A stretch of 64,000 nt of DNA, taken from assembly GCF_044647545.1 (NCBI RefSeq), contig NZ_CP172818.1. One strand, given 5' to 3'. Every line of letters begins with the position of its first letter. The first letter of the stretch is position 1. Below are positions 48,901-51,900 of the stretch, in pieces. A program made the position numbers. Source of the DNA: Escherichia coli (GTDB lineage: Bacteria > Pseudomonadota > Gammaproteobacteria > Enterobacterales > Enterobacteriaceae).

Positions 48901-51900
48901 TTCACTGTTGAAGCCGCCGGTAGTGACCGCCCAGTGCAGTGCCTCACGATCACAGCAGTCCAGCGCGAACGTGACACGCAGTCTCTCTCCGTTATCACAG
49001 CAGAACTCGAACCCGTCAGAGCACCATCGCTGATTGCTTTCTTTCACGGCCACTCTGCCTGTATGTGCCCGTTTCGATGGCGGTACAGCAGGTTTTCGCT
49101 CAAGCAACAGCGCATTCTGGCGCATGATCCGGTAAACACGTTTGGCATTGATCGCAGGCATACCATCAAGTTCTGCCTGTCTGCGAAGCAGCGCCCATAC
49201 CCGACGATAACCATACGTTGGCAGCTCTCCGATAACATGGTGTATACGGAGAAGCACATCCGTATCATCAGTGTGACGACTGCGGCGGCCATCCATCCAG
49301 TCATCGGTTCGTCTGAGAATGACGTGCAACTGCGCACGCGACACCCGGAGACAACGGCTGACTAAGCTTACTCCCCATCCCCGGGCAATAAGGGCGCGTG
49401 CGCTATCCACTTTTTTGCCCGTCCATATTCAACGGCTTCTTTGAGGAGTTCATTTTCCATCGTTTTCTTGCCGAGCAGGCGCTGGAGTTCTTTAATCTGC
49501 TTCATGGCGGCAGCAAGTTCAGAGGCAGGAACAACCTGTTCTCCGGCGGCGACAGCAGTAAGACTTCCTTCCTGGTATTGCTTACGCCAGAGAAATAACT
49601 GGCTGGCTGCTACACCATGTTGCCGGGCAACGAGGGAGACCGTCATCCCCGGTTCAAAGCTCTGCTGAACAATTGCGATCTTTTCCTGTGTGGTACGCCG
49701 TCTGCGTTTCTCCGGCCCTAAGACATCAATCATCTGTTCTCCAATGACTAGTCTAAAAACTAGTATTAAGACTATCACTTATTTAAGTGATATTGGTTGT
49801 CTGGAGATTCAGGGGGCCAGTCTAAACTTGCTCTTTTCTTCTGGTATTTATCTTTGAAAGATTTGCAGGATAAATAACATTAAGTAAAGCCGCATCGGCT
49901 TCTCTGTAATGTTTATCTTTTTCCAGATAACCTGGGGATTCTCCCCCTAAATCAAGCTGTAACGTTATTCTTTCATAACCTTTATCTATGAGGTGGTTCA
50001 ACCTCGTTGTTGAAAAAGTTGCATCCAGTTCATTGGCTTTAGCTTCGCGTAGTAAATCAGAGACAAAAACAGAGTCTTTCTTCGAGAGTAGGTTTGACAA
50101 ACGTTCCAGTCCAGAGGTCACCAGTGCAACGGAAGATGTGTTTAATCGGGCATCTTCTTCCCACGCTCCGGAATCTTCCATAATATAGAAATTGGCTTCA
50201 TCCAGATAAGCAATCAGCAGCGCAACCGATTTTAATCGGTCACCTTTTTGCCAATCTTCAGCGTTAATAGTACCAGTGTCGATTGCTTGTATAAGGAGAT
50301 CAAGATAAAGACCTAACGCATCATTTTGTTTATGGTTCCACAGCTGCGGCTTGCCTTCTTCCTGCACATCTGCCATCACGGGGGAGTTGCTGTCAAATCG
50401 GATATGTACAGCATTCATTTGCCCAGGAATACCATCCAGTCGTTTTGGGTTGCTAATGACGTCCTGCATCCGCTTAATCTGGTCGGGCGTAGACATATAA
50501 TCCCACAGAGTGAGCAGAACCTTTTTTGCGGCTACACTATTTCCCTGATCTGATACTAATGCCATATAGCCCCATAAACTATCCCTCAGCCAGACAGCAT
50601 CATAGTGGGTTTCTGCCGCTGTTTTGTCATCTTCGAAAGTAGAAGCAAGAATAAATGTTCCCCAGGGTTTCTCCGTCAACGTTAACTTTCGTGTATTTTC
50701 TGTTAATGTTAACAATCCTTGAATTTCGTCTTTGGTATAGTGGCTCTTTATTTCATTTTTTAATTTGGCTGAGTGAATCAGAAGACGATAATTAGGATAC
50801 TTATCTGGATTTAACGATAAATAACTTTTATCAGTTGCTGCCCCCGTGGAATTAAGAATGTTAAATACAGATTCACTCGTCACTTCTGCCCCTGTCGCCT
50901 GGCATGTGCCGCACGAAAATATACCAGCGAGCAGAAGAGTTAATGTAGATTTCCCTTTCATAAAAGATTCCATCAATCGTTTGTTAAAAGCGTAGATAAC
51001 CACTTATTTAACAACTTGAAAATAAGGTATTTTACCTGGGTTGTTACAAAAGGATTGCATTGCGTAAACGCTTTTTATTTACAAAAAAATGGGGAAGTGT
51101 TACAGCGATTGCGAAAAGTCTGAAGCAATTGAATTAAGATAATATAGAAAGTCAGATACAGCAAAAATGGCAGGTTGATGAGGTGAAGATAAATTGGAGC
51201 GGGCGAAGGGAATCGAACCCTCGTATAGAGCTTGGGAAGCTCTCGTTCTACCATTGAACTACGCCCGCTTCGAGATGCGTAAGGCATTATAAACCTTACG
51301 CTCTCCTTAGCAAGTACCGCGCTGCTGACTGCTGATTAATTCGCCATCAGCATTTTGGCTTGCTGCCCTGAGGCGGCAAGTAACGTAGCGGATCAATTGC
51401 CGTTGCACGGTAACGAATCTGGAAATGCAGGCGAACCGATGCCGCATCAGTGCTCCCCATAGTGGCGATTTTTTGCCCAGCCTTCACGCTTTGCCCATTA
51501 TTTACCAGCATCGTGTCATTATGAGCGTAAGCCGTAATGTAATCTTCACTGTGTTTAATCATGATGAGATTACCGTAGCCACGCAGCTGGTTGCCCACAT
51601 ACACCACCTTTCCTGCACCCGCGGCGTAAATAGGTGTACCCCGTGGAGCTGAGATATCAATCCCTTTATTGCCGCCATCAGCTGTCGAATACGGCATGAT
51701 AACTTTCCCTGTCGTTGGCCATAACCAACAACGTTGCCCTACTGGCGGCCAGGAAGATTTCGGTACTGCTGATGACGGTGTAACCGATGCGGTTTTGGTC
51801 GTTGATTTGGCGGTTGATTTACGTGTACTGCTACTTTTCGCCCCACCCAGTTTTAGTTTCTGACCAACTTCAATGGTGTAAGGGGGGGAAATGCCGTTCA

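Follow-up and report, generated by a model that had tools for sequence, protein, structure and literature searches.

We examined a window of 64,000 nucleotides of Escherichia coli DNA (contig NZ_CP172818.1 of assembly GCF_044647545.1; "the window" is this whole stretch), in which an open reading frame (ORF) on the minus strand at 49825-50961 ends against the insertion sequence IS2. This ORF is very probably the 5' 71% of pkgA (ygeQ), the gene of a divergent, exported enzyme of the glycoside hydrolase family GH15, cut by IS2 and reduced to an inactive pseudogene. It is a pseudogene fragment, an ordinary remnant of a known gene of the ETT2 type III secretion island, with the same structural lesion as E. 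coli K-12; both the gene and its truncation are already known.

The fragment (codons 1-379 of 536, present in the ORF list and matched to WP_022646081.1) starts with an ATG at 50961 and contains 379 sense codons, the last of which, V379, lies at 49827-49825. The TAG stop that follows, read directly from the sequence at 49824-49822 on the minus strand, is formed by the terminal 3 bases of IS2, whose end on the gene strand reads TAGACTGGCCCC. The intact gene continues past codon 379 as GTT CTA AAA, and the intact locus runs GAGCAAGTT up to the cut point and CTAAAAATAG beyond it. A longer, GTG-started version of the ORF, reaching to 51003, is also possible; the annotation of orthologues starts at MKGK. 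Up to base 49825, the fragment agrees at every position (100% identity) with nucleotides 1-1137 of the intact gene of FDAARGOS_497 (1611 bp; WP_022646081.1, 536 aa), and 157 C-terminal residues are missing from the window copy. The ORF is not a chance frame, because it is 97-100% identical to a gene present in thousands of E. coli genomes. The natural length is about 536 aa, since intact orthologues have 536 aa and homologues from a 5.8-billion-protein collection span 490-608 aa. An earlier sequence-only reading had proposed that the gene was truncated exactly at the IS2 junction and had lost its C-terminal part there; this is literally so, and the full-length orthologues dispose of the idea that the protein is naturally this short.

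The gene is ygeQ/ygeP (b2863/b2862) of the ETT2 island, with glyU as one neighbor and the type III secretion genes as the other. At the ETT2 edge, the window retains the order glyU, ygeQ, IS2, and a remnant of orgA; the other side is occupied by actS/ygeR and xdhABC. Work on ETT2 calls the intact gene pkgA, for "phosphorylase kinase and glucoamylase" (ECs3736/ECs3737 in O157 Sakai and EC042_3075 in enteroaggregative E. coli 042), describes it as putatively glucoamylase-like, and places it at the island's end (PMC3977695, PMC2808357). Its GC content is 41.6%, against roughly 52-54% in the adjacent chromosomal genes. A scan for promoters and terminators around pkgA, on the strand of the gene, gave nothing above shuffled expectation. 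The suggestion that such a gene is unusual for E. coli does not stand: of 5426 complete E. coli genomes, 3986 have at least part of pkgA and 2969 have no less than 80% of its full-length DNA, and clustering at 90% identity puts 13,903 member sequences together with the 536-aa form. In O157:H7 the gene is frameshifted; other lesions among the complete genomes include IS1 and IS421 insertions and several further truncation points. This repeated decay of pkgA fits the known attrition of ETT2.

The element at the cut is a 1331-bp IS2 at 48494-49824, with insC/insD on the minus strand and reading frames of 136 and 301 aa. It is identical at 1331 of 1331 positions to IS2A, IS2D, and IS2H of MG1655, and also to the compared 905 bp of IS2I. 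No 5-bp target duplication was found at IS2, whose outside flanks read TTTAT and AACTT. By comparison with FDAARGOS_497, it stands in place of 16,944 bp of ETT2 (reference segment 25936-42879), and thus borders a deletion instead of forming a simple insertion. Lost at the pkgA end are the 3' 474 bp of pkgA (the last 157 codons) and a ghoT/ortT-like toxin gene; lost with them is the core of the type III secretion system (T3SS), comprising eivF, sctC, the gatekeeper gene, sctV, sctN, the needle-length (SpaN/EivJ-family) genes, sctQ, the sctRSTU genes, the prgH-K homologues, and the 5' end of orgA. We propose that IS2, abutting codon 379 and supplying the stop, marks a 16.9-kb deletion of the ETT2 secretion core. 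Ren et al. reportedly described IS2-mediated deletions and "mutational attrition" of ETT2 in 2004. ETT2 attrition is also reviewed in PMC3977695 and PMC11068852. As a separate observation, the toxin gene between pkgA and eivF in intact islands is of the GhoT/OrtT family and encodes 59 aa (ydcX-like, ECs3735; FDAARGOS_497 locus 7720-7899).

The family to which PkgA belongs is broad. Homologues are found in Escherichia albertii (76% identity), Yersinia enterocolitica (60%), Commensalibacter, and Bifidobacterium, and further in Elusimicrobiota, Planctomycetota, Synergistaceae, and Clostridiales. The GH15 profile PF00723 is matched by the window ORF at 25.5 bits and by the full-length orthologue at 23.8 bits, a small margin over the curated gathering cutoff of 22 bits; 30 of 35 family members match it, with a best E-value of 1.1e-7. 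An NCBIfam scan returned a sub-threshold match to TIGR01577 only. Searches of the PDB by sequence, whether with the protein or with the family profile, retrieved only the GH15-like domains found in phosphorylase kinase (PhK) alpha and beta subunits, with an E-value of 4.9e-7 for the profile. For the intact orthologue, AlphaFold2 run on an alignment of 35 sequences gave a model with a mean predicted local distance difference test score (pLDDT) of 90 and a predicted template modeling score of 0.90; the model contains an (alpha/alpha)6-barrel catalytic domain. Its top Foldseek matches are PhK beta, the Kribbella isomaltose glucohydrolase, and glucoamylases; in structure comparison, other (alpha/alpha)6 families score at lower Z, in agreement with Foldseek. 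As modeled, the intact protein consists of a short N-terminal beta-rich segment followed by the (alpha/alpha)6 barrel. GH15 membership appears weak but consistent by sequence and strong by predicted structure, and we regard the intact protein as a divergent, distant but genuine member of GH15. The assignment to GH15 in the sequence-only reading is thus borne out, by the profile match above cutoff as well as by the motif YDAVWLRDS on which it had drawn.

We compared PkgA with the GH15 enzymes of A. niger (3EQA), T. thermosaccharolyticum (1LF6), and Kribbella (5Z3A), with glucodextranase (1ULV), and with dextran dextrinase (9JU0). Like these, PkgA has the motifs Y-x3-W-x-R-D, W-x3-Q-x-D, W-E-E, and R-Y-x2-D-x-Y-x5-W, and like 1LF6 it has a PE[QS]...PLNW[SA] segment. 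Unlike these, it shares only 12-16% identity with them, passes the Pfam cutoff barely, and reads "ES" after the putative base where canonical GH15 has "EQ"; its N-terminal segment of about 90 aa compares with a beta-sandwich N-domain of about 250 aa in bacterial glucoamylases, and it carries no starch-binding module. In the window copy, the C-terminal third is also gone. PhK alpha and beta (8JFK) are eukaryotic, cytosolic, multidomain regulatory proteins of more than 1000 aa without a signal peptide, whereas PkgA is predicted to be a single-domain, exported bacterial protein.

Residue pairings come from a profile-profile alignment (hhalign) of the PkgA family with GH15 sequences of fungi (E 0.0019, 339 columns). 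The A. niger sequence used is identical to PDB 3EQA over 442 residues, and the residue numbering was checked against 3EQA. Alignment of the family profile with the single A. niger sequence was set aside: it gave a local match of 105 columns only, and its global mode was meaningless. The fungal GH15 profile improved the result; the C-terminal register is still doubtful. The motif YDAVWLRDS (residues 120-128; 50578-50604, minus strand) aligns with W52-R54-D55 of glucoamylase, such that Y120, W124, R126, and D127 correspond to Y48, W52, R54, and D55; R126 is invariant in the family, and W124 and D127 are at least 90% conserved. W208, Q212, and D214 pair with A. niger W120, Q124, and D126, which, like W52, R54, and D55, belong to the -1 subsite. 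In A. niger glucoamylase, E179 is the general acid; the counterpart of the motif to which it belongs, W178-E179-E180, is W267-E268-E269 of PkgA (50155-50163, minus strand), which is invariant in the 35 family members and also aligns with the "G(I/V)WE" of PhK alpha and beta. Further downstream, the substrate-motif residues R394, D398, Y400, and W406 of the intact orthologue pair with A. niger R305, D309, Y311, and W317. Across the family, every paired motif residue of PkgA is either invariant or conserved to at least 90%.

By its invariance and the resemblance of its surroundings, E491 is probably the catalytic base. We favor this residue, found in "ALPESYN," because no other acidic residue in the segment joining the last two helices is invariant, because "PLNWSKAS" downstream of it begins the final helix of the model, and because the segment "LPESY...IPLNWSKA" parallels "ISEQV...SPLNWAHA" at 632-663 of 1LF6, where Glu636 is the published catalytic base. 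Pfam scans of five C-terminal fragments of about 175 aa gave no match and hence no profile coordinates for the base.

The window ORF keeps W124, R126, and D127; W208, Q212, and D214; and W267-E268-E269. The cut falls at residue 379, within the barrel helix 373-384 of the model, and removes helices 416-425, 437-451, 454-469, and 513-535, which are 4 of the 12 barrel helices. Beyond codon 379 the invariant residues R394, D398, Y400, W406, E491, and W514 are lost. Judged on the model, the truncated product should be inactive as a glycosidase, because a third of the barrel helices, the R394...W406 motif, and the candidate base E491 have been removed. It is conceivable that the 379-aa product keeps some other function, such as carbohydrate binding or a moonlighting role as a lipoprotein, since its start, signal peptide, W-R-D and WEE motifs, and uninterrupted frame are all kept, and the 264-aa YgeQ fragment of K-12 is still listed as a protein in databases. 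We hold this to be very improbable: the cut lies inside a barrel helix, 4 of 12 such helices and invariant residues are lost, fragments of (alpha/alpha)6 barrels of this kind are not expected to fold, and no family member has a length of 379 aa besides partial sequences at contig ends.

The N-terminus of PkgA, MKGKSTLTLLLAGIFSCGTCQATG, has the pattern of charge and hydrophobicity of a Sec signal peptide. The protein starts MKGKSTLTLLL, with MKGK preceding a hydrophobic run and then IFSC17GTCQA; the signal region comprises residues 1-23 (50893-50961, minus strand, identified by sequence pattern and homologues), with the lipobox-like IFSC placing Cys17 at 50911-50913. In the AlphaFold2 model, residues 1-23 have pLDDT values below 50. 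Most diderm homologues have an N-terminal hydrophobic segment, several with classical lipoboxes; the homologues of Clostridiales and Bifidobacterium have neither a signal peptide nor a lipobox. The signal peptide proposed in the sequence-only reading is present by sequence pattern. It is probably that of a lipoprotein, as which ygeQ of MG1655 is also annotated ("putative lipoprotein"), and PkgA itself may be a lipoprotein. On such sequence features, the intact enzyme would most likely be a periplasm-facing or membrane-anchored, exo-acting alpha-glucoside hydrolase.

A role on host glycans, which the sequence-only reading had raised, has already been proposed in the literature. As told in passages of PMC3977695 and PMC2808357, pkgA was tentatively proposed, after Pallen 2003, to encode an ETT2 effector acting on host glycogen. 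PkgA would then be a type III effector that acts on host glycogen metabolism instead of a periplasmic enzyme. The place of pkgA at the ETT2 island's end and its low GC content (41.6% against roughly 52-54%) speak for this, as do the glycogen-associated PhK alpha and beta subunits being its nearest solved sequence relatives and the proposal itself being cited in those passages of PMC3977695 and PMC2808357. We nevertheless consider an effector improbable. The Sec- and lipoprotein-like N-terminus is conserved in most diderm homologues, the K-12 annotation reads "putative lipoprotein," the family is widespread, and ETT2 is degraded in most strains. Neither T3SS genes nor conserved neighbors were seen beside the homologues examined in Yersinia, Commensalibacter, and Bifidobacterium: the Yersinia homologue adjoins an invasin-like gene, that of Commensalibacter adjoins an EamA transporter and a GH32 enzyme, and that of Bifidobacterium lies between an unknown gene and groES. 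A type III effector is expected to lack a Sec signal, to have an N-terminal T3S signal, and to be linked to a T3SS across homologues; PkgA has a Sec/lipobox-like leader, and its homologues in the three genera examined show no such linkage. We favor an exported hydrolase over a T3SS effector because of the Sec/lipobox-like leader and because the homologous loci examined are without T3SS genes.

Several points weigh against an exported GH15 enzyme cut by IS2. The similarity to GH15 is weak by sequence, with Pfam scores barely above threshold and an hhalign probability of only 14%, and the PDB sequence searches with protein or family profile found no canonical GH15 chain. The nearest solved sequence relatives, the PhK alpha and beta domains, belong to regulatory subunits and are not proven enzymes, and in the literature searched we found no demonstrated activity for any member of the PkgA clade; a full-text search for "ygeQ" yielded nothing useful. 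The hhalign result sets the E491 segment in a register different from the one in which E491 is the base. The residue at lipobox position -2 in E. coli PkgA is an atypical Phe: the segment reads I-F-S-C17, as compared with V-L-A-C17 in E. albertii and the consensus [LVI][ASTVI][GAS]C. Finally, the IS2 junction is doubtful in the real source strain.

This doubt arises from comparison with K-12. Common to K-12 and the window are the gene, its position by glyU, IS2 in the same orientation, and the 16.9-kb loss of secretion-apparatus genes. In MG1655 the locus is annotated as ygeQ (b2863, "putative lipoprotein YgeQ"), ygeP (b2862, pseudogene), IS2H, and ygeO (b2859, pseudogene), and both IS2 junctions of the window are base-identical to those of MG1655 (ygeO'-IS2H-ygeP'). 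The IS2 cut is not new, being base for base the one in K-12 MG1655. The gene and its surroundings differ. K-12 ygeQ has an additional nonsense codon at position 265 (GGA to TGA), which divides it into ygeQ (264 aa) and ygeP, whereas the window copy is open for 379 codons. This G265* stands directly before the WEE motif, at a place corresponding to about 50167-50169 of the window, and the K-12 copy is thereby inactivated twice. In the K-12 haplotype, G265* may predate the IS2 deletion, because the same allele occurs in strains with full-length gene DNA (e.g., PCP06102). The K-12 flanks differ from those of the window by 2% on the right and about 7% on the left, whereas the window flanks match FDAARGOS_497; the nearest K-12-specific single-nucleotide polymorphisms (SNPs) lie 15 bp and 22 bp from the IS2 junctions. 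On the plus strand, the window has A at 49846 and C at 49866. The element itself cannot be assigned to K-12 IS2H in particular, as all IS2 copies examined are identical.

Along its length, the window follows FDAARGOS_497, in which the pkgA-ETT2 locus is intact. Positions 1-22683 show 0 mismatches and 1 homopolymer gap; positions 22583-48493 differ by 2 private SNPs, by homopolymer length at a few places, and over one degenerate stretch; and positions 49825-64000 are 100% identical. The same deletion architecture occurs in 351 complete genomes, all of which have the K-12 flank haplotype and 95.4-95.6% identity to the window, and the exact window junction occurs in 0 of 5426 genomes. When JGI metagenomes were scanned for a junction of the window type, the sole match was a K-12 genome, and it had the K-12 allele. 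An exact-product look-up yielded no complete gene of this kind; the 379-aa product appeared on two contigs only, both of which end at codon 379 (GTTCG; GTTCT). The ending GTTCT is the intact continuation of the gene, and the two contigs give no support for an IS2 junction in the window haplotype. The products of alternative starts (383 and 393 aa) were absent from the exact-product index.

Other irregularities point to the assembly. A 156-nt stretch at 42442-42597 degenerates into A-rich low complexity where FDAARGOS_497 is normal. It lies wholly within a 236-bp intergenic segment between yqeK and ygeF that FDAARGOS_497 has and K-12 does not; this segment is bounded by the 9-bp direct repeat AAGGTGATA, and its first ~43 nt are correct in the window. 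The A-rich stretch looks like an assembly or gap-fill artefact. Homopolymer lengths also differ from FDAARGOS_497 (C6 vs C7 at 7001, in recB; A8 vs A7 at 41222; A18 vs A17 at 43324). Of these, C6 would put recB out of frame and A8 is the state of K-12; such differences suggest a noisy source assembly.

We lean slightly toward the view that the truncation is an assembly or chimera artefact produced on a K-12 template, and that the real strain, a near-twin of FDAARGOS_497, has an intact pkgA and a full ETT2. The window is nearly identical to a genome with the intact locus, yet its junctions are base-identical to those of K-12, whose flanks are ~2% and ~7% divergent and whose own SNPs lie 15 and 22 bp from the junctions; the 351 complete genomes with the deletion are all of K-12 haplotype, and neither the JGI nor the exact-product look-up found the window junction. 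A K-12 template may have shaped the assembly, because two anomalies sit exactly at the two large structural differences between K-12 and this strain: relative to FDAARGOS_497, K-12 is missing just one other large segment, and the A-rich stretch lies inside it. The homopolymer-length errors, with the noisy assembly they suggest, point the same way. Not everything agrees. A third indel between K-12 and the strain, a 78-bp segment at 51108-51182 (between pkgA and glyU), is in the state of the strain: both the window and FDAARGOS_497 have it, and K-12 does not. The first ~43 nt of the 236-bp segment are likewise correct, and IS2, being identical in all copies examined, gives no pointer to K-12. 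A plain reference consensus on K-12 is ruled out by the 78-bp segment and the start of the 236-bp segment, both of which K-12 lacks.

A real junction, by contrast, we judge unlikely. It would require either an independent IS2 event at the same two positions as in K-12 or the import of the K-12 deletion allele followed by conversion of both its flanks, through mismatch repair, as far as the heterology boundary. The pkgA locus decays repeatedly (IS1, IS421, other truncations, the O157 frameshift, the K-12 nonsense codon), and the missing 5-bp target duplication fits an IS2-mediated deletion, both of which would sit well with a genuine event. Yet that both breakpoints should coincide by chance is extremely improbable, homologous import would be expected to bring SNPs of the donor into the flanks, where none are seen, no other genome combines the window haplotype with the junction, and the A-rich stretch at the other K-12 indel would be left unexplained. 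We see only a slim chance for the wider proposition that the junction is genuine, the 16.9-kb core having been excised with an IS2 at the same two base positions in two unrelated lineages, K-12 and a clinical clone like FDAARGOS_497, and that, separately, the PkgA clade is an exported GH15 subfamily, possibly with a new alpha-glucan substrate. A genuine junction would mean a recurrent, site-specific hot spot of IS2 deletion, or else a deletion allele that spread horizontally and whose flanks were completely converted.

The question of an artefact leaves the sequence content of the fragment unaffected; it touches only whether the truncation is biology. The window resembles known ETT2 attrition, which is widespread in E. 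coli, in that the island by glyU is partly deleted and contains insertion sequences and pseudogenes; it differs only in having a K-12 junction within a non-K-12 haplotype, and the mechanism is not different. A lesion of K-12 type in such a haplotype is a warning of possible reference contamination in the assembly, from which calls of ETT2 gene presence or absence are not to be trusted without reads. The pkgA remnant is itself of little importance, as one more case of documented ETT2 decay with a lesion already annotated in K-12. The intact PkgA family is another matter: it is large, conserved, and taxonomically broad, with an export signal and, as it appears by sequence, a complete set of GH15 catalytic residues, and it is the closest bacterial sequence relative of the phosphorylase kinase regulatory subunits. 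The speculation that PkgA is an effector is 20 years old.

Three neighboring features complete the description of the locus. The chromosomal anchor of the island, just upstream of pkgA, is glyU, a tRNA-Gly(CCC) at 51195-51268 on the minus strand (ARAGORN; annotation of FDAARGOS_497 and MG1655). At the other end of IS2, the 3' remnant of the T3SS gene orgA/ygeO occupies 48095-48493 on the minus strand (annotation of FDAARGOS_497 and MG1655; ORF list); an ORF of 141 aa at 48095-48520 on that strand has its ATG within the IS2 end and is thus a hybrid frame of IS2 and orgA'. A 58-aa ORF at 52096-52272 on the minus strand overlaps the start of actS/ygeR; it is unannotated in K-12 or O157 and is listed as the hypothetical protein WP_001329734.1 in FDAARGOS_497.

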